Made by a program: the position numbers and the translations under genes. A stretch of DNA of 64,000 nt from Eledone cirrhosa (Eukaryota), in contig OZ024764.1 of the NCBI GenBank assembly GCA_964016885.1, positions 1,054,001 through 1,118,000 on the forward strand, read 5' to 3'. Numbering within the stretch: position 1 is the stretch's first letter; every line of letters begins with the position of its first letter. The notes beneath the pieces were generated by a model that was not told the DNA's origin, ran no database searches, and saw only the letters and a list, made by a program, of their open reading frames with translations. Below, piece after piece: positions 24,969 through 62,744 of the stretch.

Positions 24969-25017
<49 letters not shown>

Positions 25018-31049: not shown

Positions 31050-31152
31050 TTAAGCCTTTCTACATGTCATCATATACAGGATCATTGTGAATGACAAGGA
31101 TTATCACAGCTCTTTCTGGTCAAAGTGGCCGCCCTTACTTGTGTCAGGGTAA

Positions 31153-31183
31153 ATATAGAGTAATGTAAATGCTAAAGGGTTAA
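31153..31183 (-). mobile_element. Solo 31-bp copy of the same MITE terminus
   Basis: ATATAGAGTAATGTAAATGCTAAAGGGTTAA is repeated 130 bp after the identical sequence at 31023-31053. Confidence 0.8.
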
Positions 31184-36644: not shown

Positions 36645-36724
36645 CATATATACATATACATATATATTCACACACATGTGAATATATATATGCATATATT
36701 ATATATATATTATATATATATTAT

Positions 36725-36758
<34 letters not shown>

Positions 36759-36783
36759 GTAGATTATATATATATATATATAT
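35772..36783. repeat. (TA)n/(CA)n/TATG low-complexity microsatellite tract
   Basis: Nearly pure alternating purine-pyrimidine AT-rich runs. Further (TA)n runs lie at about 24007, 24965, 34938 and 35340. Confidence 0.95.
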
Positions 36784-36904
36784 TTAAAATCAACCCATGC
36801 CTTCTGGAGATAACATATCTATCAAGGTGACAATTTCATGTGATTGCACCACATTTCTTATTGTTTTTCGGTCGAGTGGCCTACAGTATTATTGTTATTA
36901 TTTC

Positions 36905-37055
36905 GGTGGTGGATTGGCAGAGTCGGGAGAGCGTCAGACACCATGCTTCACAGCATAGAGCTCCGGCCTTTTACAGTCTGAGTTCAAATCCCGCTGAGGT
37001 TAGCTTTGCAATTCATCCTTACAGAAGTCAATAAAATAAAATATCAGTAATGCAC
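36905..37055 (+). mobile_element. tRNA-derived SINE, 3'-truncated
   Basis: TGGCAGAGTCGGGAGAG, GAGTTCAAATCCC, TTTGCAATTCATCCTTAC..AAAATAAAATATCAGTAATGCAC. Stops just before the TTAA at 37059. Confidence 0.8.
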
Positions 37056-37069
37056 GATTTAACCCTTTA

Positions 37070-38286
37070 ACATTTACATTACTCTATATATACTATTGTA
37101 TTTTCATGGTAAAGGCTTTACCTCACATAATATCTCACATAACATTTACATTACTCTATATATACCATTGTATTTTCACAGTAAAGGCTTTACCTCACAT
37201 AATATCTCACATAACATTTACATTACTCTATATATACTATTGTATTTTCACAGTAAAGGCTTTACCTCACATAATATCTCACATAACATTTACATTACTC
37301 TATATATACCATTGTATTTTCACAGTAAAGGCTTTACCTCACATAATATCTCACATAACATTTACATTACTCTATATATACTATTGTATTGTCACAGTAA
37401 AGGCTTTACCTCACATAATACCTCACATAACATTTACATTACTCTATATATACTATTGTATTGTCACAGTAAAGGCTTTACCTCACATAATACCTCACAT
37501 AACATTTACATTACTCTATATATACTATTGTATTTTCACAGTGAAGGCTTTACCTAACATAATTGTTTCTACTTTTGGCACAAGGCCAGCAATTATTCCA
37601 GTGCATTACTGGTACTTTATTTTATCGACCCCGTAAGGATGAAAGGCAAAGTTAACCTCGGCGGGATTTGAACTCAGATCATAAAGGGAGGTAACTCTAT
37701 GCTTCAAAGCATGGCGTCCGACCCTTACCGATACTGCCAATCCAAGTAAAGGCTTTACCTCACATAATACCTCACATAACATTTACATTACTCTATATAT
37801 ACTATTGTATTTTCACAGTAAAGGCTTTACCTCACATAATATCTCACATAACATTTACATTACTCTATATATACTATTGTATTGTCACAGTAAAGGCTTT
37901 ACCTCACATAATATCTCACATAACATTTACATTACTCTATATATACTATTGTATTTTCACAGTAAAGGCTTTACCTCACATAATACCTCACATCACATTT
38001 ACATTACTCTATATATACTATTGTATCGTCACAGTAAAGGCTTTACCTCACATAATATCACACATAACATTTACATTACTCTATATATACTATTGTATTT
38101 TCACGGTAAAGGCTTTACCTCACATAATACCTCACATAACATTTACATTACTCTATATATACTATTGTATTTTCACAGTAAAGGCTTTATCTCACATAAT
38201 ATCTCACATAACATTTACATTACTCTATATATACTATTGTATTTTCACACTAAAGGCTTTACCTCACATAATATCTCACATAACAT
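37070..38286 (+). repeat. 72-bp array, segment 1
   Basis: Unit ACATTTACATTACTCTATATATACTATTGTATT(G/T)TCACAGTAAAGGCTTTACCTCACATAATATCTCACATA, interrupted by a SINE. Confidence 0.96.
37564..37744 (-). mobile_element. tRNA-derived SINE inserted in the 72-bp array, TSD of about 24 bp
   Basis: Full reverse-complement copy of the SINE family. Flanks are AGTGAAGGCTTTACCTAACATAAT (37540-63) and AGTAAAGGCTTTACCTCACATAAT (37745-68). Confidence 0.88.
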
Positions 38287-38497
38287 CTCGTATACGAGAG
38301 ACGTGTGTTGACGTGTGTGAACAAGCTCGGCTACCGAGTCGGATTTACTTACTCAAAAAGTGAGTTTTGATTAATTTTTTTATACTGTAATATACGTTAA
38401 CCCCTTGCCTTGGTCGTCAAACTTTGAGTTTATTTATTTTCGCCCCTTTCTGGGGCGAATTTTCCAGTTAAAAATTTATTACGGCAAACTAATAGAA

Positions 38498-40222
38498 ATG
38501 GACGGAATTTTCACATCTCATCCTAACGTGAAAGCCACGCCCCCTAAGAAAGGTGATACAGAGAAGATAGAAGCACAAGGCTCTAAGTCTTCCCTCCTGA
38601 CTTCTGCAAAAGAAACATGGAACACGGAATTAAAAGAAAAATTTGTAAAAATGGGTGATAACCCAGAAAGTCACATAAACGCAGACAAAAACAACAACGA
38701 CAATAACAGCAATAGTCACAACACCAACCAAGGAAAAAATAACGATAACACCAAACAAAGCGAACCCACTACTGGTGCCTCCTTTGCACAGGCGGTCCGG
38801 AAAACACAAACCTGCAAGCAACTGGACATTACAACTCTGAGAGAAAAGATGAAGGAAGCGAAACAGTATGTAACTTTCAAAGAAGGAGGAGACTTCACAA
38901 TCACCTCCCCACAAGAAATCAAAAGAGACACGACGCTAAGAACGATATCTTTCAGAACAATTTCCAACATAACAAGGAAACCAACTCAATTATCCCAAAA
39001 AGAGATTGAGCTGGTCCTAAAAAATGTGTGGAGTGATATATCGTTCATACAAAAAGGGCCACTCTATGGGAATATAACGGTCCTAATGAAGGATCAATTG
39101 ACGACCAGGAAATACTCTGTGGCACCAATTGTTTCCAAGCTACATACATTTTTCCCCACATATTTAGGGAAAAGAACGCAGAAGATAAGGGTCTCCGGAA
39201 TCCGGCCAAATGCATGCATTTCCTGGGTACTAACAGGATTTTTAGAAGACGAGGACGGAATCCTCTCAGTAGGAGAAGTCACCATAGACGTTTTCGGCGG
39301 TTTGAGCGTGGAGGTTCTGGTCCAAATGAGACCAGAACGAATAGCTAGAATACCACAGAGGGTGTCCCTCGATGGAGAAACATTTATATATATTTCAGCC
39401 GAGGGTAGGAGGCCCATATGTTACTACTATTCAAGCAGGGGTCATCTAAGGGCTGCTTGTCCTCAATTGACAAAAAAAAAGGCTCTTTTGCCTACACCAC
39501 ACACACCACCACCGCCACCACCACCACCACCACCACAACAACAACAAAAACAACACGGAAAAATAACACAAGACACGGCCCCACCCAAAACAACTCCCAA
39601 AACACACACAAATACAACAAAACCCCAAAATACACCACTACCCGACAGCACGGACGAGGACCCAGCGGAAACGGCACCTAGTGACGAAGAGGGGGAACCC
39701 TTCCAACCTGTAAAAAGGAAAAAAAGAAAGCACCACTCGAACATAAACGAAACAAACACACAACCACCAACAAAAACAAAACAAACAGAACAAACAAAAT
39801 CCGCCCCACCCCAAAACATAACACATACAACAAAACGTAAGCACACACAAGAACAACAAACAAACACAACACAAATAAAACAGTATACATACATTAACAC
39901 AAATAACAAAGAACTAGTAAAAACAATACACAAAGACCCTTTGGTGGAAACTGAAGGGCAATTCTTTGCAAGCGCGGCCAACAAACCGCATTTAAAAATG
40001 ATAAGACTCCCAATGGACACCTATGCAAAACTAAGAGAGAACTTTCCTGAGGACGTGGGGAAAACATGTACTCGACCCTATAACCGCGTCCTCTTGAAAC
40101 GTTTCCCCACCCACACCTCACCAAACACCCCCACTCCACCACAGAACAACACCCCACCAAACAACCCCTCCAATACGCCCATGGATATTGTGCAACCTGC
40201 TCCTCAGGAGCCGAACAGGTAG
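38498..40222 (+). CDS. LINE ORF1 nucleic-acid-binding protein (574 aa from first ATG); zinc knuckle has Cys2->Tyr
   Basis: Open frame with SFAQAV, CYYYSSRGHLRAAC (copies 2 and 3 have CYYC, giving CX2CX4HX4C), a P/T/Q-rich tail and a basic KRKKRK motif. Ends 21 nt before ORF2. Confidence 0.85.
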   Translation: MDGIFTSHPNVKATPPKKGDTEKIEAQGSKSSLLTSAKETWNTELKEKFVKMGDNPESHINADKNNNDNNSNSHNTNQGKNNDNTKQSEPTTGASFAQAVRKTQTCKQLDITTLREKMKEAKQYVTFKEGGDFTITSPQEIKRDTTLRTISFRTISNITRKPTQLSQKEIELVLKNVWSDISFIQKGPLYGNITVLMKDQLTTRKYSVAPIVSKLHTFFPTYLGKRTQKIRVSGIRPNACISWVLTGFLEDEDGILSVGEVTIDVFGGLSVEVLVQMRPERIARIPQRVSLDGETFIYISAEGRRPICYYYSSRGHLRAACPQLTKKKALLPTPHTPPPPPPPPPPQQQQKQHGKITQDTAPPKTTPKTHTNTTKPQNTPLPDSTDEDPAETAPSDEEGEPFQPVKRKKRKHHSNINETNTQPPTKTKQTEQTKSAPPQNITHTTKRKHTQEQQTNTTQIKQYTYINTNNKELVKTIHKDPLVETEGQFFASAANKPHLKMIRLPMDTYAKLRENFPEDVGKTCTRPYNRVLLKRFPTHTSPNTPTPPQNNTPPNNPSNTPMDIVQPAPQEPNR

Positions 40223-40243
40223 GTCCTTCCTCTTTTAACCAAC

Positions 40244-43200
40244 ATGGCTGATATAAGAGTTGGGTGTCTGAATGTACGTGGCCTGGGACTGTCTTGGAAA
40301 CAAGGCAAACTTTTAAACGATCTCAGGTCGCATAGAATGGATGTAATGGCTATTTGCGAGTCCAGGATCAGCAGCGAGCACCAACTGGCGCCCCTCTTCG
40401 ACGACTTTGAGATCTTCGCATCTCTCTGTCAACCGGGGGGTGGGGGTGGAGTTGTCGTTCTGCTGCGAAAACACCTGGGCCTCGCCATACAGAAGGTGCA
40501 CCTGGACCCGGAGGGTCGACTGGTGGTTTTAGACGTCGGCAGTAGTGAAAGTGGAGCCCTTAGACTAATAGCTGTGTACGCCCCTTTTTGGGCAGCGCGG
40601 CCGGAATACTTCCAACGTCTGGAAACTTTTCTGGGAACGTCCCGCTCCTTGCTTTTAGTGGGGGACTGGAATGGTATCCTGGATGCACGTTGGGACTATG
40701 TAGGGGCATGTGCCAATAGAGGGGGGTGTAAAAGCCTCAAAAGGTTAATCGGCCGATTTGACCTGGCCGATAGATATCGACTAGATTTTCCGACTGTACC
40801 ACTATGGACGTGGACCAATCGCAGTGGAACATCTAGGTCGTACCTAGATAGGGTCCTAGTTAGAGAGAACGATAGGGACACATTTAGCTGTCCAAAAATG
40901 TTCATGGTTGACTATTCGGATCACAAGTTAGTGACCTGCATAGCCAACCTTGATAGAACCCATAGACAGGGACCCGGTTACTGGAAGCTGAACTTGTCCT
41001 TACCGAGAAGCAAAGCTTACAGTAAACGGATTAGCACGTTAGTTAAGCAGAGTTTGACAGGGGCAATTGTCAACAACAGGTGGTGGAGCTCTCTTAAGAG
41101 AGCAATTAGAATAGAATCGATAGGTTTTAGTCAGGAATTAGCAAGGGATAGGAACAAGACGGAAAGGGAATTAGTAGATAGAGTAGAAGAGGCGATTAGG
41201 AGTGGCAATGTAGCCAGCGTGCTGGCATCAAGAATGGCCTTAGACCAGTTCTTTGAGGTGAAGCATGAAGGCTGCGTTGTCAGGAGTAAAATACGTGCTC
41301 TGGGTAATGAGGGAGCCAAAGCTGTGAGCTGGGCCCGAGTGACAGAGGCAAAAAGTGGGAACAAGTCCACGATTCGGTCTTTGAAGGACCAGGATGGGCG
41401 TGTGATCCTTGAACCTGGGCAGATGTGTGCGGCCTTTCAGCGGCACTTTGCACGACTGTTCGAGAGGGGCGGCGCGCCGGGTGAGACTATGGATTTCAAT
41501 CCATACCTCGACGGTCTGCCGCGCCTCTCGGACGCGGAGGCGAAGTCCTGCGAAAGGACGATTTCAGCTGCTGAGATAGGGGCGGCGCTGAGCCAATGCG
41601 GCAAACGCAAATCCCCGGGTCTCGATGGTCTACCATACGAGCTATATGTAGCGATGCCGGACTTGTTCTCCGATATCCTCGAAGCGGTCTACTGCAACTG
41701 GCAGCAGAACGGGAGAATTCCCAGTTCTGTGACCAAGGGCGTAGTTACGCTGGTGAGGAAGGATGAGAACAAGGGGGATGACATAAGTAACTTCAGGCCC
41801 ATAACTCTGCTAAATACAGAGTTAAAGATTTTGGCCAAGGTGTTAGCGAAGAGGTTGGCGCTTGTCGTTGGAAACCTGGTGGGAGAAGCGCAGACATGCG
41901 CAATCCCGTCCAGGTCCATTCACGACAATCTCCACCTTATGCGATACATCATAGAGAGGGTAGGGAATGAACCCGGCTTTGGTGGGGCCCTGATCAACTT
42001 GGATCAATCTAAAGCTTTCGATAGGGTTGACCATCGTTACCTGGATGCGGTGCTCGCGGCGGCAGGCTTCGGACCCGTTTTCAGGGGTTGGATTGCTGCG
42101 ATGCACAGCAGCAACGTCTGCTCAAGGGTCAAGGTGAACGGCCACCTCTCGGAGCCGTTCCAAATCATGCGATCCATCCGACAGGGATGCCCTCTCTCCT
42201 CCCTACTGTATGTGCTGGCTCTTGAGCCACTACTGCGGAAGTTGGAGCGGTTGCAGGGCATCCCTTTGGAACCGGGATTGCAGAAAGCGGCGTCGGCCTA
42301 CGCCGATGACGTGACAGTAATGGTGTCGAAAACCTCGCAAATCGGTGAGATCGGCACCTTACTGGAGGAATATGAAAGGTTTACAGGAGCCAAGCTGAAC
42401 CGGGACAAGTCCGTCGGTTTGCAACTCGGAACATGGAGAGGCAAACCGATGCCCTCCAACGACGTCGTCGGACGCTGGACGGAGGGCCCGGTGAAGCTGC
42501 TTGGGGTCTGGTTCGGACCAGACCTCCAGGTGGAGAAAAACTGGAACGAGGTAACGGCCAGGGTGTTTGCACTCACCCAGAAGTGGGCCCAGTGCAAACT
42601 ATCCCTGAAAGGTCGAGCGGAGGTGGTGAATACTTATATAGCATCCGTCATCTACTACCGCTTGACCGTCGTGCCTTGCCCAGTGAAAAGACTCGCCAAA
42701 ATGGAGTGCGCGCTGTTCCAATTTCTTTGGAACAAGCGGACCCCTTTGGTGAGGAGATCCATCTGCTGTCAACACCCTTCGAAAGGAGGGCTGGGGATGC
42801 CGTGGCTACAGATGCGTAAACACGCATTAAGGCTACGGCACCTCCAGGTATTCCTCACCGGTCAACCGGTGTGGGCCCCGTTTGTGAGGCGAGCCTTTCC
42901 CAGACTCGTCTCGCTCACCGAGCTGCAATCCTGGGTCAAGCAAAGACCGAGAAAAGTGGGCGACTGGCACATTGAATGTGCCCAGGCGCTCACGGCCCTC
43001 TGGAAAGCGGACCCGGCAATCAGTGGAGACTCCACGTCGACATTCTATAGAGGGTTGGTACGCAGCAGGTGCGACGATGCTCTCGGAGAAGCTCTAGGCA
43101 TGGAGGAAGATGAACTGGCCAGTCTGTTCGGTAGGACGTTTGGCCCTGGACCGATGGACAACTTCCAAAAGTCCCTGGCTTGGCAGTGCTACCAAGGGGC

Positions 43201-43681
43201 TCTACCCGTTCGAGACAAGCTCCACAGGCATGGGAGCCTGGGTAGAGATCCTTTGAATAAGATCTGTCCGAGATGCGTGCATGATGACGAAACCGTTGCG
43301 CACGCATTCGTACACTGCCCAGGCATTGCTGACCTGTGGGGCTATGTGGAACGACTACTGTCGAGGGTGGGACCAATCCGGTTGACCACCGAGTCCATTG
43401 TCACGATCAAACCGCCTCCCCCTTTCAAAAACGAAGGAGAGGCGGTTTTTCTCTGTGTGGTAGCCATGGCTAAAGAAGTTGTATGGTGGACGAGGCTGAA
43501 AGGGCTGAGGTCAGACACCTTTCTCTCCGGCCAACAACTGGTCCCCTTTTTAAAATACCATTTTAAAAGAAGGATCAGAATGGAGAGAGAGGTGCTCTAC
43601 CCCAGCAAGTTTTATGAAAGGTGGGTGAAAGTAGGGAGAATGGCCAGAGTGAATGGGTCTTCTCTCTATATCAGCCTGTAG
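40244..43681 (+). CDS. LINE ORF2: AP-like endonuclease, reverse transcriptase and C-terminal Zn finger, 1145 aa
   Basis: Endonuclease motifs NVRG, E, YAP, GDWN, SYLD, SDH; GYWKLN; RT motifs KSPGLDG, NFRPITLLN, LDQSKAFDRV, QGCPLS, YADD; GGLG; CPRC..ETVAHAFVHC. Confidence 0.96.
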   Translation: MADIRVGCLNVRGLGLSWKQGKLLNDLRSHRMDVMAICESRISSEHQLAPLFDDFEIFASLCQPGGGGGVVVLLRKHLGLAIQKVHLDPEGRLVVLDVGSSESGALRLIAVYAPFWAARPEYFQRLETFLGTSRSLLLVGDWNGILDARWDYVGACANRGGCKSLKRLIGRFDLADRYRLDFPTVPLWTWTNRSGTSRSYLDRVLVRENDRDTFSCPKMFMVDYSDHKLVTCIANLDRTHRQGPGYWKLNLSLPRSKAYSKRISTLVKQSLTGAIVNNRWWSSLKRAIRIESIGFSQELARDRNKTERELVDRVEEAIRSGNVASVLASRMALDQFFEVKHEGCVVRSKIRALGNEGAKAVSWARVTEAKSGNKSTIRSLKDQDGRVILEPGQMCAAFQRHFARLFERGGAPGETMDFNPYLDGLPRLSDAEAKSCERTISAAEIGAALSQCGKRKSPGLDGLPYELYVAMPDLFSDILEAVYCNWQQNGRIPSSVTKGVVTLVRKDENKGDDISNFRPITLLNTELKILAKVLAKRLALVVGNLVGEAQTCAIPSRSIHDNLHLMRYIIERVGNEPGFGGALINLDQSKAFDRVDHRYLDAVLAAAGFGPVFRGWIAAMHSSNVCSRVKVNGHLSEPFQIMRSIRQGCPLSSLLYVLALEPLLRKLERLQGIPLEPGLQKAASAYADDVTVMVSKTSQIGEIGTLLEEYERFTGAKLNRDKSVGLQLGTWRGKPMPSNDVVGRWTEGPVKLLGVWFGPDLQVEKNWNEVTARVFALTQKWAQCKLSLKGRAEVVNTYIASVIYYRLTVVPCPVKRLAKMECALFQFLWNKRTPLVRRSICCQHPSKGGLGMPWLQMRKHALRLRHLQVFLTGQPVWAPFVRRAFPRLVSLTELQSWVKQRPRKVGDWHIECAQALTALWKADPAISGDSTSTFYRGLVRSRCDDALGEALGMEEDELASLFGRTFGPGPMDNFQKSLAWQCYQGALPVRDKLHRHGSLGRDPLNKICPRCVHDDETVAHAFVHCPGIADLWGYVERLLSRVGPIRLTTESIVTIKPPPPFKNEGEAVFLCVVAMAKEVVWWTRLKGLRSDTFLSGQQLVPFLKYHFKRRIRMEREVLYPSKFYERWVKVGRMARVNGSSLYISL

Positions 43682-43917
43682 GTGAAAGAAGAGGAAAAAG
43701 AGGAGACGAGGGAAGCACCTACTCTTTGTGCTCCTGAGGAGAAGGGTTGCACATTTTTTCCGGGGTGTGTGCGACCCATGTTAATGCCCCTCCCTATTGA
43801 GGACTTCGTTTGTTGTTGTTATTTCATTGTTATATTTTTGTACTCGTTAATTATATGTAAACTTCCCCCCTTGTATCTGTCCCAACCTTTTGTGCCCTGG
43901 TGGCAAATAAAGAAACC

Positions 43918-45400
43918 ACTCTATATATACTATTGTATTGTCACATAATATCTCACATAACATTTACGTTACTCTATATATACTATTGTATTTTCACAGT
44001 AAAGGCTTTACCTCACATAATATCTCACATAACATTTACGTTACTCTATATATACTATTGTATTGTCACAGTAAAGGCTTTACCTCACATAATATCTCAC
44101 ATAACATTTACATTACTCTATATATACTATTGTATTGTCACAGTAAAGGCTTTACCTCACATAATATCTCACATAACATTTACGTTACTCTATATATACT
44201 ATTGTATTGTCACAGTAAAGGCTTTACCTCACATAATATCTCACATAACATTTACGTTACTCTATATATACTATTGTATTGTCACAGTAAAGGCTTTACC
44301 TCACATAATATCTCACATAACATTTACATTACTCTATATATACTATTGTATTGTCACAGTAAAGGCTTTACCTCACATAATATCTCACATAACATTTACA
44401 TTACTCTATATATACTATTGTATTGTCACAGTAAAGGCTTTACCTCACATAATATCTCACATAACATTTACATTACTTTATATATACTATTGTATTGTCA
44501 CAGTAAAGGCTTTACCTCACATAATATCTCACATAACATTTACATTACTCTATATATACTATTGTATTTTCAGAGTAAAGGCTTTACCTTACGTAATATC
44601 TCACATAACATTTATATTACTTTATATATACTATTGTATTGTCACAGTAAAGGCTTTACCTCACGTAATATCTCACATAACATTTACATTACTCTATATA
44701 TACTATTGTATTGTCACAGTAAAGGCTTTACCTCACATAATATCTCACATAACATTTACATTACTCTATATATACTATTGTATTGTCACAGTAAAGACTT
44801 TACCTCACATAATATCTCACATAACATTTACATTACTCTCTATATACTATTGTATTTTCACAGTAAAGGCTTTACCTCACATAATATCTCATATAACATT
44901 TACATTACTCTATATATACTATTGTATTGTCACAGTAAAGACTTTACCTCACATAATATCTCACATAACATTTACATTACTCTATATATACTATTGTATT
45001 GTCACAGTAAAGGCTTTACCTCACATAATACCTCACATAACATTTACATTACTCTATATATACTGTTGTATTGTCACAGTAAAGACTTTACCTCACATAA
45101 TATCTCACATAACATTTACATTACTCTATATATACTATTGTATTGTCACAGTAAAGGCTTTACCTCACATATCTCACATAACATTTACATTACTCTATAT
45201 ATACTATTGTATTGTCACAGTAAAGGCTTTACCTCACATAATATCTCACATAACATTTACATTACTCTATATATACTATTGTATTGTCACAGTAAAGACT
45301 TTACCTCACATAATATCTCACATAACATTTACATTACTCTCTATATACTATTGTATTTTCACAGTAAAGGCTTTACCTCACATAATATCTCACATAACAT
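43918..45400 (+). repeat. 72-bp array, segment 2 (21 units)
   Basis: 1483 bp equals 21x72 minus a 7-bp junction loss and 19-bp and 3-bp internal deletions. Confidence 0.96.
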
Positions 45401-45601
45401 CTCGTATACGAGAGACGTGTGTGAACAAGCTCGGCTACCGAGTCGGATTTACTTACTCAAAAAGTGAGTTTTGATTAATTTTTTTATACTGTAATATACG
45501 TTAACCCCTTGCCTTGGTCGTCAAACTTTGAGTTTATTTATTTTCGCCCCTTTTTGGGGCGAATTTTCCAGTTAAAAATTTATTACGGCAAACTAATAGA
45601 A

Positions 45602-47324: not shown

Positions 47325-47345
47325 GTCCTTCCTCTTTTAACCAAC

Positions 47346-50300
47346 ATGGCTGATATAAGAGTTGGGTGTCTGAATGTACGTGGCCTGGGACTGTCTTGGA
47401 AACAAGGCAAACTTTTAAACGATCTCAGGTCGCATAGAATGGATGTAATGGCTATTTGCGAGTCCAGGATCAGCAGCGAGCACCAACTGGCGCCCCTCTT
47501 CGACGACTTTGAGATCTTCGCATCTCTCTGTCAACCGGGGGGTGGGGGTGGAGTTGTCGTTCTGCTGCGAAAACACCTGGGCCTCGCCATACAGAAGGTG
47601 CACCTGGACCCGGAGGGTCGACTGGTGGTTTTAGACGTCGGCAGTAGTGAAAGTGGAGCCCTTAGACTAATAGCTGTGTACGCCCCTTTTTGGGCAGCGC
47701 GGCCGGAATACTTCCAACGTCTGGAAACTTTTCTGGGAACGTCCCGCTCCTTGCTTTTAGTGGGGGACTGGAATGGTTTCCTGGATGCACGTTGGGACTA
47801 TGTAGGGGCATGTGCCAATAGAGGGGGGTGTAAAAGCCTCAAAAGGTTAATCGGCCGATTTGACCTGGCCGATAGATATCGACTAGATTTTCCGACTGTA
47901 CCACTATGGACGTGGACCAATCGCAGTGGAACATCTAGGTCGTACCTAGATAGGGTCCTAGTTAGAGAGAACGATAGGGACACATTTAGCTGTCCAAAAA
48001 TGTTCATGGTTGACTATTCGGATCACAAGTTAGTGACCTGCATAGCCAACCTTGATAGAACCCATAGACAGGGACCCGGTTACTGGAAGCTGAACTTGTC
48101 CTTACCGAGAAGCAAAGCTTACAGTAAACGGATTAGCACGTTAGTTAAGCAGAGTTTGACAGGGGCAATTGTCAACAACAGGTGGTGGAGCTCTCTTAAG
48201 AGAGCAATTAGAATAGAATCGATAGGTTTTAGTCAGGAATTAGCAAGGGATAGGAACAAGACGGAAAGGGAATTAGTAGATAGAGTAGAAGAGGCGATTA
48301 GGAGTGGCAATGTAGCCGGCGTGCTGGCATCAAGAATGGCCTTAGACCAGTTCTTCGAGGTGAAGCATGAAGGCTGCGTTGTCAGGAGTAAAATACGTGC
48401 TCTGGGTAATGAGGGAGCCAAAGCTGTGAGCTGGGCCCGAGTGACAGAGGCAAAAAGTGGGAACAAGTCCACGATTCGGTCTTTGAAGGACCAGGATGGG
48501 CGTGTGATCCTTGAACCTGGGCAGATGTGTGCGGCCTTTCAGCGGCACTTTGCACGACTGTTCGAGAGGGGCGGCGCGCCGGGTGAGACTATGGATTTCA
48601 ATCCATACCTCGACGGTCTGCCGCGCCTCTCGGACGCGGAGGCGAAGTCCTGCGAAAGGACGATTTCAGCTGCTGAGATAGGGGCGGCGCTGAGCCAATG
48701 CGGCAAACGCAAATCCCCGGGTCTCGATGGTCTACCATACGAGCTATATGTAGCGATGCCGGACTTGTTCTCCGATATCCTCGAAGCGGTCTACTGCAAC
48801 TGGCAGCAGAACGGGAGAATTCCCAGTTCTGTGACCAAGGGCGTAGTTACGCTGGTGAGGAAGGATGAGAACAAGGGGGATGACATAAGTAACTTCAGGC
48901 CCATAACTCTGCTAAATACAGAGTTAAAGATTTTGGCCAAGGTGTTAGCGAAGAGGTTGGCGCTTGTCGTTGGAAACCTGGTGGGAGAAGCGCAGACATG
49001 CGCAATCCCGTCCAGGTCCATTCACGACAATCTCCACCTTATGCGATACATCATAGAGAGGGTAGGGAATGAACCCGGCTTTGGTGGGGCCCTGATCAAC
49101 TTGGATCAATCTAAAGCTTTCGATAGGGTTGACCATCGTTACCTGGATGCGGTGCTCGCGGCGGCAGGCTTCGGACCCGTTTTCAGGGGTTGGATTGCTG
49201 CGATGCACAGCAGCAACGTCTGCTCAAGGGTCAAGGTGAACGGCCACCTCTCGGAGCCGTTCCAAATCATGCGATCCATCCGACAGGGATGCCCTCTCTC
49301 CTCCCTACTGTATGTGCTGGCTCTTGAGCCACTACTGCGGAAGTTGGAGCGGTTGCAGGGCATCCCTTTGGAACCGGGATTGCAGAAAGCGGCGTCGGCC
49401 TACGCCGATGACGTGACAGTAATGGTGTCGAAAACCTCGCAAATCGGTGAGATCGGCACCTTACTGGAGGAATATGAAAGGTTTACAGGAGCCAAGCTGA
49501 ACCGGGACATGTCCGTCGGTTTCCAACTCGGAACATGGAGAGGCAAACCGATGCCCTCCAACGACGTCGTCGGACGCTGGACGGAGGGCCCGGTGAAGCT
49601 GCTTGGGGTCTGGTTCGGACCAGACCTCCAGGTGGAGAAAAACTGGAACGAGGTAACGGCCAGGGTGTTTGCACTCACCCAGAAGTGGGCCCAGTGCAAA
49701 CTATCCCTGAAAGGTCGAGCGGAGGTGGCGAATACTTATATAGCATCCGTCATCTACTACCGCTTGACCGTCGTGCCTTGCCCAGTGAAAAGACTCGCCA
49801 AAATGGAGTGCGCGCTGTTCCAATTTCTTTGGAACAAGCGGACCCCTTTGGTGAGGAGATCCATCTGCTGTCAACACCCTTCGAAAGGAGGGCTGGGGAT
49901 GCCGTGGCTACAGATGCGTAAACACGCATTAAGGCTACGGCACCTCCAGGTATTCCTCACCGGTCAACCGGTGTGGGCCCCGTTTGTGAGGCGAGCCTTT
50001 CCCAGACTCGTCTCGCTCACCGAGCTGCAATCCTGGGTCAAGCAAAGACCGAGAAAAGTGGGCGACTGGCACATTGAATGTGCCCAGGCGCTCACGGCCC
50101 TCTGGAAAGCGGACCCGGCAATCAGTGGAGACTCCACCTCGACATTCTATAGAGGGTTGGTACGCAGCAGGTGCGACGATGCTCTCGGAGAAGCTCTAGG
50201 CATGGAGGAAGATGAACTGGCCAGTCTGTTCGGTAGGACGGTTGGCCCTGGACCGATGGACAACTTCCAAAAGTCCCTGGCTTGGCAGTGCTACCGAGGG

Positions 50301-50783
50301 GCTCTACCCGTTCGAGACAAGCTCCACAGGCATGGGAGCCTGGGTAGAGATCCTTTGAATAAGATCTGTCCGAGATGCGTGCATGATGACGAAACCGTTG
50401 CGCACGCATTCGTACACTGCCCAGGCATTGCTGACCTGTGGGGCTATGTGGAACGACTACTGTCGAGGGTGGGACCAATCCGGTTGACCACCGAGTCCAT
50501 TGTCACGATCAAACCGCCTCCCCCTTTCAAAAACGAAGGAGAGGCGGTTTTTCTCTGTGTGGTAGCCATGGCTAAAGAAGTTGTATGGTGGACGAGGCTG
50601 AAAGGGCTGAGGTCAGACACCTTTCTCTCCGGCCAACAACTGGTCCCCTTTTTCAAATACCATTTTACAAGAAGGATCAGAATGGAGAGAGAGGTGCTCT
50701 ACCCCAGCAAGTTTTATGAAAGGTGGGTGAAAGTAGGGAGAATGGCCAGAGTGAATGGGTCTTCTCTCTATATCAGCCTGTAG
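47346..50783 (+). CDS. LINE ORF2 (APE-RT-ZnF), 1145 aa, copy 2
   Basis: Intact, with all motifs as in copy 1 and only a few substitutions. Confidence 0.96.
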   Translation: MADIRVGCLNVRGLGLSWKQGKLLNDLRSHRMDVMAICESRISSEHQLAPLFDDFEIFASLCQPGGGGGVVVLLRKHLGLAIQKVHLDPEGRLVVLDVGSSESGALRLIAVYAPFWAARPEYFQRLETFLGTSRSLLLVGDWNGFLDARWDYVGACANRGGCKSLKRLIGRFDLADRYRLDFPTVPLWTWTNRSGTSRSYLDRVLVRENDRDTFSCPKMFMVDYSDHKLVTCIANLDRTHRQGPGYWKLNLSLPRSKAYSKRISTLVKQSLTGAIVNNRWWSSLKRAIRIESIGFSQELARDRNKTERELVDRVEEAIRSGNVAGVLASRMALDQFFEVKHEGCVVRSKIRALGNEGAKAVSWARVTEAKSGNKSTIRSLKDQDGRVILEPGQMCAAFQRHFARLFERGGAPGETMDFNPYLDGLPRLSDAEAKSCERTISAAEIGAALSQCGKRKSPGLDGLPYELYVAMPDLFSDILEAVYCNWQQNGRIPSSVTKGVVTLVRKDENKGDDISNFRPITLLNTELKILAKVLAKRLALVVGNLVGEAQTCAIPSRSIHDNLHLMRYIIERVGNEPGFGGALINLDQSKAFDRVDHRYLDAVLAAAGFGPVFRGWIAAMHSSNVCSRVKVNGHLSEPFQIMRSIRQGCPLSSLLYVLALEPLLRKLERLQGIPLEPGLQKAASAYADDVTVMVSKTSQIGEIGTLLEEYERFTGAKLNRDMSVGFQLGTWRGKPMPSNDVVGRWTEGPVKLLGVWFGPDLQVEKNWNEVTARVFALTQKWAQCKLSLKGRAEVANTYIASVIYYRLTVVPCPVKRLAKMECALFQFLWNKRTPLVRRSICCQHPSKGGLGMPWLQMRKHALRLRHLQVFLTGQPVWAPFVRRAFPRLVSLTELQSWVKQRPRKVGDWHIECAQALTALWKADPAISGDSTSTFYRGLVRSRCDDALGEALGMEEDELASLFGRTVGPGPMDNFQKSLAWQCYRGALPVRDKLHRHGSLGRDPLNKICPRCVHDDETVAHAFVHCPGIADLWGYVERLLSRVGPIRLTTESIVTIKPPPPFKNEGEAVFLCVVAMAKEVVWWTRLKGLRSDTFLSGQQLVPFFKYHFTRRIRMEREVLYPSKFYERWVKVGRMARVNGSSLYISL

Positions 50784-51021
50784 GTGAAAGAAGAGGAAAA
50801 AGAGGAGACGAGGGAAGCACCTACTCTTTGTGCTCCTGAGGAGAAGGGTTGCACATTTTTTCCGGGGTGTGTGCGACCCATGTTAATGCCCCCTCCCTAT
50901 TGAGGACTTCGTTTGTTGTTGTTATTTCATTGTTATATTTTTGTACTCGTTAATTATATGTAAACTTTCCCCCTTTGTATCTGTCCCTACCTTTTGTGCC
51001 CTAGTGGCAAATAAAGAAACC

Positions 51022-52238
51022 ACTCTATATATACTATTGTATTGTCACAGTAAAGGCTTTACCTCACATAATATCTCACATAACATTTACATTACTCTAT
51101 ATATACTATTGTATTGTCACAGTAAAGGCTTTACCTCACATAATATCTCACATAACATTTACATTACTCTATATATACTATTGTATTGTCACAGTAAAGG
51201 CTTTACCTCACATAATATCTCACATAACATTTACATTACTCTATATATACTATTGTATTGTCACAGTAAAGGCTTTACCTCACATAATATCTCACATAAC
51301 ATTTACATTACTCTATATATACTATTGTATTGTCACAGTAAAGACTTTACCTCACATAATATCTCACATAACATTTACATTACTCTCTATATACTATTGT
51401 ATTGTCACAGTAAAGACTTTACCTCACATAATATCTCACATAACATTTACATTGCTCTATATATACTATTGTATTTTCACAGTAAAGGCTTTACCTCACA
51501 TAATATCTCACATAACATTTACATTACTCTATATATACTATTGTATTGTCACAGTAAAGACTTTACCTCACATAATATCTCACATAACATTTACATTACT
51601 CTCTATATACTATTGTATTGTCACAGTAAAGACTTTACCTCACATAATATCTCACATAACATTTACAGTACTCTATATTTACTATTGTATTTTCACAGTA
51701 AAGGCTTTACCTCACATAATATCTCTCATAACATTTACATTACTCTATATTTACTATTGTATTGTCACAGTAAAGGCTTTACCTCACATAATATCTCTCA
51801 TAACATTTACATTACTCTATATATACTATTGTATTGTCACAGTAAAGGCTTTACCTCACATAATATCTCACATAACATTTACATTACTCTATATATACTA
51901 TTGTATTGTCACAGTAAAGGCTTTACCTCACATAATATCTCACGTAACATTTACATTACTCTATATTTACTATTGTATTGTCACAGTAAAGGCTTTACCT
52001 CACATAATATCTCACATAACATTTACAGTACTCTATATTTACTATTGTATTTTCACAGTAAAGGCTTTACCTCACATAATATCTCTCATAACATTTACAT
52101 TACTCTATATATACTATTGTATTGTCACAGTAAAGGCTTTACCTCACATAATATCTCACATAACATTTACATTACTCTATATATACTATTGTATTGTCAC
52201 AGTAAAGGCTTTACCTCACATAATATCTCACATAACAT
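51022..52238 (+). repeat. 72-bp array, segment 3 (17 units)
   Basis: 1217 bp equals 17x72 minus 7 exactly. Confidence 0.96.
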
Positions 52239-52452
52239 CTCGTATACGAGAGACGTGTGTTGACGTGTGTGAACAAGCTCGGCTACCGAGTCGGATTTAC
52301 TTACTCAAAAAGTGAGTTTTGATTAATTTTTTTTTTATACTGTAATATACGTTAACCCCTTGCCTTGGTCGTCAAACTTTGAGTTTATTTATTTTCGCCC
52401 CTATTTGGGGCGAATTTTCCAGTTAAAAATTTATTACGGCAAACTAATAGAA

Positions 52453-54175
52453 ATGGACGGAATTTTCACATCTCATCCTAACGTGAAAGCCACGCCCCCT
52501 AAGAAAGGTGATACAGAGAAGCTAGAAGCACAAGGCTCTAAGTCTTCCCTCCTGACTTCTGTAAAAGAAACATGGAACACGGAATTAAAAGAAAAATTTG
52601 TAAAAATGGGTGAAAACCCAGAAAGTCACATAAACGCAGACAAAAACAACAACGACAATAACAGCAATAGTCACAACAGCAACCAAGGAAAAAATAACGA
52701 TAACACCAAACAAAGCGAACCCACTACTGGTGCCTCCTTTGCACAGGCGGTCCGGAAAACACAAACCTGCAAGCAACTGGACATTACAACTCTGAGAGAA
52801 AAGATGAAGGAAGCGAAACAGTATGTAACTTTCAAAGAAGGAGGAGACTTCACAATCACCTCCCCACAAGAAATCAAAAGAGACACGACGCTAAGAACGA
52901 TATCTTTCAGAACAATTTCCAACATAACAAGGAAACCAACTCAATTATCCCAAAAAGAGATTGAGCTGGTCCTAAAAAATGTGTGGAGTGATATATCGTT
53001 CATACAAAAAGGGCCACTCTATGGGAATATAACGGTCCTAATGAAGGATCAATTGACGGCCAGGAAATACTCTGTGGCACCAATTGTTTCCAAGCTACAT
53101 ACATTTTCCCCACATATTTAGGGAAAAGAACGCAGAAGATAAGGGTCTCCGGAATCCGGCCAAATGCATGCATTTCCTGGGTACTAACAGGATTTTTAGA
53201 AGACGAGGACGGAATCCTCTCAGTAGGAGAAGTCACCACAGACGTTTTCGGCGGTTTGAGCGTGGAGGTTCTGGTCCAAATGAGACCAGAACGAATAGCT
53301 AGAATACCACAGAGGGTGTCCCTCGATGGAGAAACATTTATATATATTTCAGCCGAGGGTAGGAGGCCCATATGTTACTACTGTTCAAGCAGGGGTCTCT
53401 AAGGGCTGCTTGTCCTCAATTGACAAAAAAAAAGGCTCTTTTGCCTACACCACACACACCACCACCGCCACCACCACCACCACCACCACAACAACAACAA
53501 AAACAACACGGAAAAATAACACAAGACACGGCCCCACCCAAAACAACTCCCAAAACACACACAAATACAACAAAACCCCAAAATACACCACTACCCGACA
53601 GCACGGACGAGGACCCAGCGGAAACGGCACCTAGTGACGAAGAGGGGGAACCCTTCCAACCTGTAAAAAGGAAAAAAAGAAAGCACCACTCGAACATAAA
53701 CGAAACAAACACACAACCACCAACAAAAACAAAACAAACAGAACAAACAAAATCCGCCCCACCCCAAAACATAACACATACAACAAAACGTAAGCACACA
53801 CAAGAACAACAAACAAACACAACACAAATAAAACAGTATACATACATTAACACAAATAACAAAGAACTAGTAAAAACAATACACAAAGACCCTTTGGTGG
53901 AAACTGAAGGGCAATTCTTTGCAAGCGCGGCCAACAAACCGCATTTAAAAATGATAAGACTCCCAATGGACACCTATGCAAAACTAAGAGAGAACTTTCC
54001 TGAGGACGTGGGGAAAACATGTACTCGACCCTATAACCGCGTCCTCTTGAAACGTTTCCCCACCCACACCTCACCAAACACCCCCACTCCACCACAGAAC
54101 AACACCCCACCAAACAACCCCTCCAATACGCCCATGGATATTGTGCAACCTGCTCCTCAGGAGCCGAACAGGTAG
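52453..54175 (+). pseudogene. Disrupted ORF1 of copy 3
   Basis: 1-bp loss in a T-run at about 53105, plus the same His-codon deletion as copy 2 at about 53397. Confidence 0.8.
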
Positions 54176-54196
54176 GTCCTTCCTCTTTTAACCAAC

Positions 54197-57100
54197 ATGG
54201 CTGATATAAGAGTTGGGTGTCTGAATGTACGTGGCCTGGGACTGTCTTGGAAACAAGGCAAACTTTTAAACGATCTCAGGTCGCATAGAATGGATGTAAT
54301 GGCTATTTGCGAGTCCAGGATCAGCAGCGAGCACCAACTGGCGCTCCTCTTCGACGACTTTGAGATCTTCGCATCTCTCTGTCAACCGGGGGGTGGGGGT
54401 GGAGTTGTCGTTCTGCTGCGAAAACACCTGGGCCTCGCCATACAGAAGGTGCACCTGGACCCGGAGGGTCGACTGGTGGTTTTAGACGTCGGCAGTAGTG
54501 AAAGTGGAGCCCTTAGACTAATAGCTGTGTACGCCCCTTTTTGGGCAGCGCGGCCGGAATACTTCCAACGTCTGGAAACTTTTCTGGGAACGTCCCGCTC
54601 CTTGCTTTTAGTGGGGGACTGGAATGGTATCCTGGATGCACGTTGGGACTATGTAGGGGCATGTGCCAATAGAGGGGGGTGTAAAAGCCTCAAAAGGTTA
54701 ATCGGCCGATTTGACCTGGCCGATAGATATCGACTAGATTTTCCGACTGTACCACTATGGACGTGGACCAATCGCAGTGGAACATCTAGGTCGTACCTAG
54801 ATAGGGTCCTAGTTAGAGAGAACGATAGGGACACATTTAGCTGTCCAAAAATGTTCATGGTTGACTATTCGGATCACAAGTTAGTGACCTGCATAGCCAA
54901 CCTTGATAGAACCCATAGACAGGGACCCGGTTACTGGAAGCTGAACTTGTCCTTACCGAGAAGCAAAGCTTACAGTAAACGGATTAGCACGTTAGTTAAG
55001 CAGAGTTTGACAGGGGCAATTGTCAACAACAGGTGGTGGAGCTCTCTTAAGAGAGCAATTAGAATAGAATCGATAGGTTTTAGTCAGGAATTAGCAAGGG
55101 ATAGGAACAAGACGGAAAGGGAATTAGTAGATAGAGTAGAAGAGGCGATTAGGAGTGGCAATGTAGCCGGTGTGCTGGCATCAAGAATGGCCTTAGACCA
55201 GTTCTTTGAGGTGAAGCATGAAGGCTGCGTTGTCAGGAGTAAAATACGTGCTCTGGGTAATGAGGGAGCCAAAGCTGTGAGCTGGGCCCGAGTGACAGAG
55301 GCAAAAAGTGGGAACAAGTCCACGATTCGGTCTTTGAAGGACCAGGATGGGCGTGTGATCCTTGAACCTGGGCAGATGTGTGCGGCCTTTCAGCGGCACT
55401 TTGCACGACTGTTCGAGAGGGGCGGCGCGCCGGGTGAGACTATGGATTTCAATCCATACCTCGACGGTCTGCCGCGCCTCTCGGACGCGGAGGCGAAGTC
55501 CTGCGAAAGGACGATTTTAGCTGCTGAGATAGGGGCGGCGCTGAGCCAATGCGGCAAACGCAAATCCCCGGGTCTCGATGGTCTACCATACGAGCTATAT
55601 GTAGCGATGCCGGACTTGTTCTCCGATATCCTCGAAGCGGTCTACTGCAACTGGCAGCAGAACGGGAGAATTCCCAGTTCTGTGACCAAGGGCGTAGTTA
55701 CGCTGGTGAGGAAGGATGAGAACAAGGGGGATGACATAAGTAACTTCAGGCCCATAACTCTGCTAAATACAGAGTTAAAGATTTTGGCCAAGGTGTTAGC
55801 GAAGAGGTTGGCGCTTGTCGTTGGAAACCTGGTGGGAGAAGCGCAGACATGCGCAATCCCGTCCAGGTCCATTCACGACAATCTCCACCTTATGCGATAC
55901 ATCATAGAGAGGGTAGGGAATGAACCCGGCTTTGGTGGGGCCCTGATCAACTTGGATCAATCTAAAGCTTTCGATAGGGTTGACCATCGTTACCTGGATG
56001 CGGTGCTCGCGGCGGCAGGCTTCGGACCCGTTTTCAGGGGTTGGATTGCTGCGATGCACAGCAGCAACGTCTGCTCAAGGGTCAAGGTGAACGGCCACCT
56101 CTCGGAGCCGTTCCAAATCATGCGATCCATCCGACAGGGATGCCCTCTCTCCTCCCTACTGTATGTGCTGGCTCTTGAGCCACTACTGCGGAAGTTGGAG
56201 CGGTTGCAGGGCATCCCTTTGGAACCGGGATTGCAGAAAGCGGCGTCGGCCTACGCCGATGACGTGACAGTAATGGTGTCGAAAACCTCGCAAATCGGTG
56301 AGATCGGCACCTTACTGGAGGAATATGAAAGGTTTACAGGAGCCAAGCTGAACCGGGACAAGTCCGTCGGTTTGCAACTCGGAACATGGAGAGGCAAACC
56401 GATGCCCTCCAACGACGTCGTCGGACGCTGGACGGAGGGCCCGGTGAAGCTGCTTGGGGTCTGGTTCGGACCAGACCTCCAGGTGGAGAAAAACTGGAAC
56501 GAGGTAACGGCCAGGGTGTTTGCACTCACCCAGAAGTGGGCCCAGTGCAAACTATCCCTGAAAGGTCGAGCGGAGGTGGCGAATACTTATATAGCATCCG
56601 TCATCTTCTACCGCTTGACCGTCGTGCCTTGCCCAGTGAAAAGACTCGCCAAAATGGAGTGCGCGCTGTTCCAATTTCTTTGGAACAAGCGGACCCCTTT
56701 GGTGAGGAGATCCATCTGCTGTCAACACCCTTCGAAAGGAGGGCTGGGGATGCCGTGGCTACAGATGCGTAAACACGCATTAAGGCTATGGCACCTCCAG
56801 GTATTCCTCACCGGTCAACCGGTGTGGGCCCCGTTTGTGAGGCGAGCCTTTCCCAGACTCGTCTCGCTCACCGAGCTGCAATCCTGGGTCAAGCAAAGAC
56901 CGAGAAAAGTGGGCGACTGGCACATTGAATGTGCCCAGGCGCTCACGGTCCTCTGGAAAGCGGACCCGGCAATCAGTGGAGACTCCACGTCGACATTCTA
57001 TAGAGGGTTGGTACGCAGCAGGTGCGACGATGCTCTCGGAGAAGCTCTAGGCATGGAGGAAGATGAACTGGCCAGTCTGTTCGGTAGGACGTTTGACCCT

Positions 57101-57634
57101 GGACCGATGGACAACTTCCAAAAGTCCCTGGCTTGGCAGTGCTACCGAGGGGCTCTACCCGTTCGAGACAAGCTCCACAGGCATGGGAGCCTGGGTAGAG
57201 ATCCTTTGAATAAGATCTGTCCGAGATGCGTGCATGATGACGAAACCGTTGCGCACGCATTCGTACACTGCCCAGGCATTGCTGACCTGTGGGGCTATGT
57301 GGAACGACTACTGTCGAGGGTGGGACCAATCCGGTTGACCACCGAGTCCATTGTCACGATCAAACCGCCTCCCCCTTTCAAAAACGAAGGAGAGGCGGTT
57401 TTTCTCTGTGTGGTAGCCATGGCTAAAGAAGTTGTATGGTGGACGAGGCTGAAAGGGCTGAGGTCAGACACCTTTCTCTCCGGCCAACAACTGGTCCCCT
57501 TTTTCAAATACCATTTTAAAAGAAGGATCAGAATGGAGAGAGAGGTGCTCTACCCCAGCAAGTTTTATGAAAGGTGGGTGAAAGTAGGGAGAATGGCCAG
57601 AGTGAATGGGTCTTCTCTCTATATCAGCCTGTAG
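54197..57634 (+). CDS. LINE ORF2 (APE-RT-ZnF), 1145 aa, copy 3
   Basis: Intact, with all motifs present. Confidence 0.96.
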   Translation: MADIRVGCLNVRGLGLSWKQGKLLNDLRSHRMDVMAICESRISSEHQLALLFDDFEIFASLCQPGGGGGVVVLLRKHLGLAIQKVHLDPEGRLVVLDVGSSESGALRLIAVYAPFWAARPEYFQRLETFLGTSRSLLLVGDWNGILDARWDYVGACANRGGCKSLKRLIGRFDLADRYRLDFPTVPLWTWTNRSGTSRSYLDRVLVRENDRDTFSCPKMFMVDYSDHKLVTCIANLDRTHRQGPGYWKLNLSLPRSKAYSKRISTLVKQSLTGAIVNNRWWSSLKRAIRIESIGFSQELARDRNKTERELVDRVEEAIRSGNVAGVLASRMALDQFFEVKHEGCVVRSKIRALGNEGAKAVSWARVTEAKSGNKSTIRSLKDQDGRVILEPGQMCAAFQRHFARLFERGGAPGETMDFNPYLDGLPRLSDAEAKSCERTILAAEIGAALSQCGKRKSPGLDGLPYELYVAMPDLFSDILEAVYCNWQQNGRIPSSVTKGVVTLVRKDENKGDDISNFRPITLLNTELKILAKVLAKRLALVVGNLVGEAQTCAIPSRSIHDNLHLMRYIIERVGNEPGFGGALINLDQSKAFDRVDHRYLDAVLAAAGFGPVFRGWIAAMHSSNVCSRVKVNGHLSEPFQIMRSIRQGCPLSSLLYVLALEPLLRKLERLQGIPLEPGLQKAASAYADDVTVMVSKTSQIGEIGTLLEEYERFTGAKLNRDKSVGLQLGTWRGKPMPSNDVVGRWTEGPVKLLGVWFGPDLQVEKNWNEVTARVFALTQKWAQCKLSLKGRAEVANTYIASVIFYRLTVVPCPVKRLAKMECALFQFLWNKRTPLVRRSICCQHPSKGGLGMPWLQMRKHALRLWHLQVFLTGQPVWAPFVRRAFPRLVSLTELQSWVKQRPRKVGDWHIECAQALTVLWKADPAISGDSTSTFYRGLVRSRCDDALGEALGMEEDELASLFGRTFDPGPMDNFQKSLAWQCYRGALPVRDKLHRHGSLGRDPLNKICPRCVHDDETVAHAFVHCPGIADLWGYVERLLSRVGPIRLTTESIVTIKPPPPFKNEGEAVFLCVVAMAKEVVWWTRLKGLRSDTFLSGQQLVPFFKYHFKRRIRMEREVLYPSKFYERWVKVGRMARVNGSSLYISL

Positions 57635-58426
57635 GTGAAAGAAGAGGAAAAAGAGGAGACGAGGGAAGCACCTACTCTTTGTGCTCCTGAGGAGAAGGGT
57701 TACACATTTTTTCCGGGGTGTGTGCGACCCATGTTAATGCCCCCTCCCTATTGAGGACTTCGTTTGTTGTTGTTATTTCATTGTTATATTTTTGTACTCG
57801 TTAATTATATGTAAACTTCCCCCCTTGTATCTGTCCCTACCTTTTGTGCCCTAGTGGCAAATAAAGAAACCACTCTATATATACTATTGTATTTTCACAG
57901 TAAAGGCTTTACCTCACATAACATTTACATTTCTCTATGGATTTTGATATTATTTATTTTGAGAACAATACCTTAACATAAGTATGAGTGGCCAGTTACA
58001 GCCGGTTTGAACAGAAAGAGGTGAGAGAATTCCAGCGAGATATGGCCGGTTTAAATGCTAAAGGGTTAAAAAAAACCATTATACGTGACAAAAAAAAGTA
58101 CATTACGAGAAATCCCATATGTTATAAAATAAATAGGATGGGTTGGGGTCTCAGTATGTAAACTAAACAACTAAAGGTTTAATGTATAAAGAAAATTGAT
58201 TGTTACAGGAATGTTACCACTTAAAATAAATTTTGTGGAGATAGTGTAGCAAAATTTAATAAGTGAAGGTTTGGGTGGAATAAGGGTGGGTTTTTCTAAA
58301 AAATATTTTGTCAAGTAATGTAACCCCTCCTAACGGCCTTTACACTAATACAGGCAGGATTTTTATTGTCATCAAGTTTTCATGATAACGATTGTTATCA
58401 TTGTTGGTTTGTGTAAGTGAGATCTA

Positions 58427-62736: not shown

Positions 62737-62744
62737 CATCATCA

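Follow-up and report, generated by a model that had tools for sequence, protein, structure and literature searches.

A 64,000-nucleotide window of the genome of the octopod Eledone cirrhosa (contig OZ024764.1, positions 1,054,001 to 1,118,000; coordinates below are those of this window) contains at 37059-58069 a 21-kb composite of nested repeats, in which a 72-bp satellite, a short interspersed nuclear element (SINE) and three copies of a long interspersed nuclear element (LINE) lie between the two ends of a small TTAA-flanked transposon. The reading that we favor, with a probability of roughly 55%, is that the left 72 bases of this transposon grew into the satellite, that the LINE targets a fixed position in the satellite unit, and that at least two of the three LINE copies are likely to be local copies rather than separate arrivals.

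The left end of the composite comprises a TTAA (37059-37062, a putative target-site duplication) followed by a 14-bp terminal inverted repeat (TIR), CCCTTTAACATTTA (37063-37076), whereas the right end comprises the 14-bp arm TAAATGCTAAAGGG (58052-58065) followed by TTAA (58066-58069). Comparison of the arms shows them to be identical at 13 of 14 positions, with CCC..GGG ends, and the single G>A change makes the left arm read as the array junction TAACAT. An initial annotation had proposed that such ends enclose the LINEs, the SINE and the satellite, and we find them where it had placed them. A scan with the 18-bp end motif recovered four occurrences in the window at up to two mismatches (any match in 0 of 100 shuffles), namely left ends at 37059 (plus strand), 31053 and 31183 (both minus strand), and the right end at 58069. 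As the other two left ends, each also preceded by TTAA, lie on the minus strand, 37059 is the sole left end oriented to pair with 58069.

Between the outer ends, repeat analysis delineates 53 units of the satellite in four blocks (14+21+17+1), all on the plus strand, and the LINE copies, also on the plus strand, are delimited by their mutual alignment and junctions. Array A1 (37071-38286, 14 units, one split by the SINE) is followed by LINE copy 1 (38287-43917, 5631 bp, lacking a poly(A) tail), array A2 (43918-45400, 21 units), LINE copy 2 (45401-51021, 5621 bp), array A3 (51022-52238, 17 units), LINE copy 3 (52239-57871, 5633 bp) and a final unit (57872-57938), which is shortened by a 12-bp deletion and runs into the right body of the non-autonomous element (57940-58051). 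Subtraction of the LINEs, the SINE and the extra units leaves 212 bp, in keeping with the roughly 200 bp estimated initially. The element that splits the unit in A1 (37564-37744, minus strand), which we take to be a SINE from its dispersed ~185-bp copies, is bounded by a ~24-bp duplication (37540-37563 and 37745-37768, 22 of 24 positions matching); an Rfam scan of 36700-38600, this element included, detected no ribozyme or RNA family. An older SINE copy lies outside the composite, immediately to the left of its TTAA (36908-37055, plus strand), and lacks the last ~41 bp that three other copies in the window carry. The caveat raised in the initial annotation stands, in that this tail does not clearly resume past 58069. 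The bases following the right TTAA match the end of the SINE tail at 8 of 9 positions, a weak resemblance that 175 of 8238 background 20-mers (2%) equal.

Two further members of the family are found in the window. The first (29743-31053, minus strand) consists of TTAA, a left end and 18 units, with neither a LINE nor a right end, and the second (31149-31183, minus strand) of TTAA and 31 bp of the left end, beyond which the sequence is unrelated. The 18-unit array and array A1 both carry the unit variants G23T and T53C, which suggests that multi-unit copies have spread, either by transposition or by recombination.

The wider family was characterized by comparing positions 52200-58400 with four of 18 listed public runs, a list in which no RNA run appeared, at 85% likeness: X1, X5 (organism B), X7 (organism D) and X16 (reads of another individual). 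Leftward of 57872, 435 X7 contigs reach the left terminus, that is, a left end joined to a unit, and past the right TTAA at 58069, 438 X7 contigs enter many different, unrelated flanks (agreement 0.37). The left arm joined to the unit also shows up as a joint between opposite strands at 57872/58052, supported by 17 X1 contigs, 16 X7 contigs and 1657 X16 reads (166 starts). Contigs with loose ends past 57921 (326 in X1, 512 in X7) and contigs and reads with loose ends ahead of 57940 (302 X1 contigs, 593 X7 contigs, 5793 X16 reads) overlap by ~27 nt, linking the unit to the right body across three runs. These data support the assignment of both ends to one family, on which the initial proposal depended, and there is very likely an abundant single-unit form, whose length of about 220 bp (~221) comes from piecing together the overlapping loose ends. 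The satellite unit is the left portion of this miniature inverted-repeat transposable element (MITE) itself, and begins inside its left arm. Summed X1 contig depth per bin, which is not a copy number, is ~470,000-1,290,000 near the unit and the right body, hundreds of times the ~2000 of the LINE subfamily. In addition, head-to-tail dimers of the MITE (joint 58069/57872) occur in 7 X1 contigs, 7 X7 contigs and 8 X16 reads, and a related MITE subfamily with the same right arm but a different interior occurs in 386 X7 contigs.

The piggyBac elements are characterized by short TIRs that start with CC(C/T). The octopod element has TTAA on both sides, a 14-bp TIR of the expected short length with CCC..GGG ends (13 of 14 positions matching) and a short, non-coding body with many dispersed copies in unrelated flanks. 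On the basis of its TTAA and CCC..GGG ends, it is likely to be a non-autonomous element of the piggyBac type, the label proposed at the outset. Inspection by eye of the 45 open reading frames (ORFs) of at least 150 aa in the window revealed none resembling a transposase, and the read and contig rows listed include no empty TTAA allele. Scans for the end pattern returned no loci in metagenome contigs or in prokaryote genomes, and three matches of the 18-mer in viral contigs are taken as chance. An assignment to Kolobok (T2-MITEs), which are defined by a TTAA target with RR (AGG) termini (PMC6004289), was rejected as the termini are CCC rather than AGG.

The three LINE copies are 99.6% identical, with 22, 23 and 23 substitutions between pairs along about 5620 bp. 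All three have an open ORF2 (1145 aa; 40244-43681, 47346-50783 and 54197-57634), whereas ORF1 (574 aa) is open only in copy 1 (38498-40222). In copy 2 it is broken by one stop and two 1-bp deletions, and in copy 3 by two 1-bp deletions, one of them common to copy 2. The only Pfam domains in ORF2 are an APE endonuclease (PF03372, about residues 1-240), a reverse transcriptase (RT; PF00078) and a C-terminal zinc motif (zf-RVT, PF13966), with no RNase H, and its best match in PDB is human L1 ORF2p (186 bits). The LINE belongs to the L1 group, and the nearest named relative of its ORF2 is a protein of Argonauta hians (68% identity over 90% of the RT region). A word search with ORF1 found no relatives, and a HMMER search found 82, of which 60 were aligned. 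A structural model of the region encoded by 38768-39475, built from the resulting 61-row alignment (pLDDT 91), adopts an RRM fold (best match Z 10.1, root-mean-square deviation 2.2, 82 aligned). A zf-CCHC match is seen in 10 of the 61 rows; in copy 1 the second cysteine of its one CCHC knuckle is replaced by tyrosine. Type I ORF1 proteins, which combine these two modules, have been linked to the Tx1 clade in non-mammalian animals (PMC5203782).

Among 71 metagenome relatives of ORF2, which are mostly 23-35% identical and served as tree rows only, 40 were scanned with Rfam, yielding two U2 matches and one U1 match. The LINEs concerned (L004, L008 and L022, two joined to U2 and one to U1) are likely to be Tx1 elements that target small nuclear RNA genes. 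The octopod ORF2 scores 461 bits against L008 and 386 bits against L004, exceeding the 186 bits for human L1. Together with the type of its ORF1, these scores suggest that the LINE is likely to be Tx1-like, in agreement with the initial annotation. A careful RT tree, computed from 45 of 91 extracted rows and without named Tx1 or vertebrate L1 rows, groups the LINE with the Argonauta protein and unnamed relatives over an unresolved base. A quick tree had nested it among the U2-flanked rows (SH-aLRT 92); the careful tree, which we prefer, leaves that fork open. The 5' end of the LINE (38287-38500) opens with a perfect 12-bp palindrome and forms stacked hairpins (z -2.8, better than 199 of 200 shuffles), which might act in processing or as a promoter. 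LINE families related at 85-95% identity (54270-57788) are up to several hundredfold deeper than this subfamily in X1 and X7.

The case for targeting begins with the junctions. In all three copies the 5' junction (TAACAT followed by CTCGTATACGAG) and the 3' junction (AAAGAAACC followed by ACTCT) are identical, and the same seven target bases, TTACATT, are absent; in read and contig data, LINE-free units hold seven letters at this joint (52238/57872). A 65-bp duplication masked by the tandem repeat, as an alternative to a 7-bp loss, was rejected, since in all three cases the partial unit ahead of the LINE differs from the one behind it. Two contigs of organism B cross the junctions (X5 record 9, 52209-52814, at the 5' side; record 16, 57556-57893, at the 3' side). 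One contig of organism D likewise starts at 52209, a position read from its end-position column and checked against the known X5 start, and bears at least six substitutions in the first 86 letters of the LINE. The LINE lineage also shows signs of selection. Among ORF1 differences not private to copy 3, 10 of 12, taken from the best-supported 40 of 2566 difference rows, are silent against a neutral share of 0.22 (p ~1e-5), and 7 of the 9 seen mainly in X7 are silent (p 6e-4). The private substitutions of the three copies are, by contrast, neutral (15 replacing to 3 silent in ORF2 and 9:1 in ORF1; Fisher p 6e-5 for the difference). This implies that the lineage has gone through retrotransposition under purifying selection while the same junction recurs. 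Given the identical junctions in the three copies, the junction contigs of organisms B and D and the silent bias in ORF1, we consider it quite probable that the LINE family targets a fixed position in the satellite unit, as the initial annotation had held. A published criterion for a target-specific LINE is that more than 20% of the copies of a family are flanked by the target (PMC4494074).

Targeting of the family does not imply that each copy in the window landed separately. The private substitutions of copies 1, 2 and 3 number 11, 11 and 12, and all three copies carry G52554 and T53345, which differ from the main X1 contig and occur in ~21% and ~56% of X16 reads, respectively. Furthermore, copies 2 and 3 both lack the A at 53397, a 1-bp deletion in ORF1 outside any homopolymer. 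This A is present in 27220 gapped and 9250 loose-ended X16 reads at a depth of 36614, leaving at most 0.4% for the deletion. The shared rare frameshift and the equal ages argue that the three copies are probably not three independent landings, and the initial view of them as independent colonizations is thereby weakened. The data would be compatible with duplication at an early stage and later turnover of the arrays, with gene conversion, or with a daughter copy inserted from a neighbor while ORF1p was supplied in trans.

Under the favored reading, the ~220-bp element, whose ends and flanks are seen in the reads, would have been dispersed to many TTAA sites by a piggyBac-type transposase presumably encoded elsewhere. 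The stretch from inside its left inverted repeat to ..CACATAA would have been duplicated in tandem, probably through slippage or through unequal exchange between short stretches of homology. To judge from the observed junctions, the APE endonuclease of the LINE probably nicks the bottom strand opposite ACTCT and primes reverse transcription there, and the second strand would be joined seven bases upstream, with loss of TTACATT; target-site truncation is a known outcome of LINE insertion (PMC4494074). Since the LINE has no poly(A) tail, priming may have taken place on read-through satellite RNA. After this seeding, one copy would have been duplicated, converted or re-inserted nearby, accounting for the frameshift common to copies 2 and 3, and all three copies would then have decayed neutrally.

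In the single-unit MITE the only equivalent cut site falls after base 11 of the 14 of the left arm and reads TAGCAT, as against TAACAT in the arrays. As this site is inside the inverted repeat, an insertion there would cripple the carrier, while the arrays offer sites that spare the ends. A broader scheme would have the birth of the satellite create a niche for the LINE, and multi-unit elements with intact ends spread the target and at times the LINE, in an octopod system convergent with Tx1C of Xenopus and kept across species; we advance this only tentatively. Of the three-tier system of MITE, satellite and LINE envisaged in the initial annotation, the origin of the satellite within the MITE and the probable targeting are supported, the LINEs as separate colonizations are weakened, and the safe-harbor role suggested for the arrays, a proposal about fitness, has no result in its favor. 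The 21-kb block most likely stays put. The suggestion that it might be mobilized as cargo gained no support. No moved composite was found in the data examined, and the other array in the window, at 29743-31053, is free of LINEs and devoid of a right end. Transposition of the full block appears very improbable.

Several observations weigh against the favored reading. On the side of the transposon, no read or contig among those listed covers the single-unit element end to end. On the side of targeting, the contigs that show the junctions in other organisms extend 30, 22 and 30 letters into the satellite, short of a bridging rule of 31, although 30 letters is what a k=31 unitig would be expected to yield at a branch. 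The LINE of organism B differs at only 10 of 2684 letters across the five subfamily contigs listed and contributes little in the way of independent time; the X7 contig at the junction and those in ORF1 may stem from different copies; and the twelve ORF1 differences come from the best-supported 40 of 2566 rows. No 5'-truncated copy of the LINE was seen in the data examined, and the careful RT tree does not resolve the LINE together with the U2-flanked elements. The loose ends listed include none at the termini of the LINE, which, with 7646 further rows beyond the listing, carries no weight either way. Local duplication, for its part, is at odds with the structure of the arrays: there is no collinearity between A2 and A3, at each of the three sites the units preceding and following the LINE differ, and the ten units with G35A/A6C occur only in the two array halves that face copy 2 (right half of A2, left half of A3), as expected had copy 2 landed in an existing patch.

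These features of the arrays would fit three separate insertions of a target-specific LINE into an already expanded array, as the initial annotation had it, the frameshift of copies 2 and 3 then stemming from a defective source mobilized in trans or else from a short tract of gene conversion. Copies 2 and 3 also differ from each other by 23 substitutions, as many as either shows against copy 1, and none of seven read-polarized substitutions that set copy 1 apart is a derived change common to copies 2 and 3. We nevertheless regard separate insertions as rather unlikely, because a frameshift found in at most 0.4% of X16 reads would have to recur in two of three neighbors, and the copies share equal ages and sub-lineage markers. 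At the other extreme, there might be no targeting whatsoever, with one old insertion passively amplified along with the satellite by unequal exchange, here and elsewhere. The identical junctions without variable tails in all three copies and the shared frameshift fit this, as does the X1 depth, which stays level at ~2000 across the 5' third of the LINE and gives no indication of 5' truncation. Passive amplification is hard to reconcile with the silent bias in ORF1 (10 of 12), which needs rounds of retrotransposition that would each create new junctions, and with the same 5' junction in organism D next to a LINE at least 7% diverged, and we consider it improbable.

The outer ends raise a separate issue, compatible with any of these readings, as 37059 and 58069 might derive from two insertions of the same family, brought together when arrays recombined and the DNA between them was lost. 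The SINE next to the left TTAA has been cut, no clear tail of it appears on the right, and the three left ends against one right end in the window indicate that arrays here lose ends. Conversely, orientation and polarity fit a single element, and the 8 of 9 match to the end of the SINE tail hints weakly at a shortened tail picking up again there; on balance such a fusion seems unlikely. Finally, the LINE triplication could be an artefact of assembly, one LINE having been written three times, given that long near-identical repeats within a satellite are error-prone and that none of the compared read or contig records spans the stretch. The 11-12 private substitutions per copy, many of them C>T or G>A in copy 3, and the distinct multi-copy variants of each array render this scarcely credible.

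The best-known parallel is Tx1L of Xenopus laevis, which sits within the internal tandem repeats of the transposon Tx1D to form the composite Tx1C, and whose insertion generates a 23-bp target duplication. Tx1D has been described as a non-autonomous DNA transposon, termed piggyBac, and Tx1L as a LINE of the Tx1 clade (Kojima 2015; PMC4494074, PMC6719617). Compared by description, the octopod system shares with it a LINE with an APE endonuclease, probably of Tx1 type, inside a non-autonomous DNA transposon. Unlike in Xenopus, the octopod unit is 72 bp long and begins in the left inverted repeat, seven bases are lost, and there are three LINEs per host element. The Tx1L endonuclease has moreover been studied directly and cuts specifically (PMC1950540), whereas the specificity of the octopod LINE is deduced from its junctions. 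Crocodilian Tx1-Mar and Tx1-9_AMi belong to Tx1 families that prefer a non-autonomous Mariner, Harbinger or long terminal repeat element, and the same account lists satellites among Tx1 targets and raises hitch-hiking as a rival explanation (PMC4494074). The crocodilian targets are single sites in old transposons, whereas the putative octopod target is a satellite that developed out of an end of the transposon itself. L004 and L008, which end in an A-run joined to U2 and are favored over human L1 by the ORF2 scores, would on account of this junction represent the U2-targeting Tx1 family Keno. Unlike them, the octopod LINE, ~28-29% identical, has a different target and lacks an A-rich tail.

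Satellites born from within a MITE also have precedents. In Xenopus Xmix and Xstir an internal MITE segment was amplified into a satellite (PMC6004289), and in the clam element DTC84 one was amplified in tandem (PMC3879986). Xmix is TTAA-flanked and ends in AGG, of the Kolobok type, versus CCC in the octopod element, and DTC84 shows AA duplications and contains no more than five repeats, unlike the octopod TTAA element with its 53 units. The parts of these two accounts consulted mention no targeting LINE. An annotation of Octopus vulgaris counts 421 insertions of 13 recently active L1-Tx1 families, along with six active piggyBac families; the first third of its text, a term search and a search of its supplement contain no link to nesting, a target or a satellite (PMC13282606), and the portions consulted of two further papers (PMC8967140, PMC8869645) hold nothing specific to this arrangement. 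No description of the octopod system was found in literature outside subscription journals, Repbase and Dfam, of which the latter two may hold both families. Taken together, the Eledone case is probably an independent octopod instance of a known arrangement, convergent with Tx1C.

The surroundings of the composite are equally rich in repeats. Directly past it, at 58080-58317, lies a TA-flanked imperfect inverted repeat with 12-nt arms (92%), in a region that is repetitive in X1 and X7 and shows opposite-strand joints at 58091/58178; it probably marks another small transposon, of which other copies carry the interior in inverted orientation. The segments 1-34600 and 58640-63995 form a mosaic of satellites with a 49-bp unit (~490 copies), a 48-bp unit present twice in opposite orientation and a 47-bp unit, which look related to each other, along with long (TA)n runs and a 61-bp unit that likewise occurs twice, in opposing orientations. 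An imperfect 152-bp palindrome (24823-24974, 88%) adjoining a (TA)n run is perhaps another fold-back MITE. Decayed RT-like fragments of other LINE types were recognized by eye at 24080-24700 and 29200-29742, and the array at 29743-31053 stops abruptly against the latter.

The general principle that a LINE may specialize on another mobile element is already established from Xenopus and crocodilians. If confirmed, the composite described here would be an invertebrate example, probably of independent origin, of a Tx1-like LINE resident in another transposon, and one that offers a young LINE family with open ORF2s and a simple target unit of 72 bp. As empty target, monomer and array coexist, the order in which the satellite expanded and the LINE acquired its specificity becomes addressable. 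It also carries a caution for repeat annotation, namely that several LINEs at one register of an array do not amount to independent evidence of targeting.

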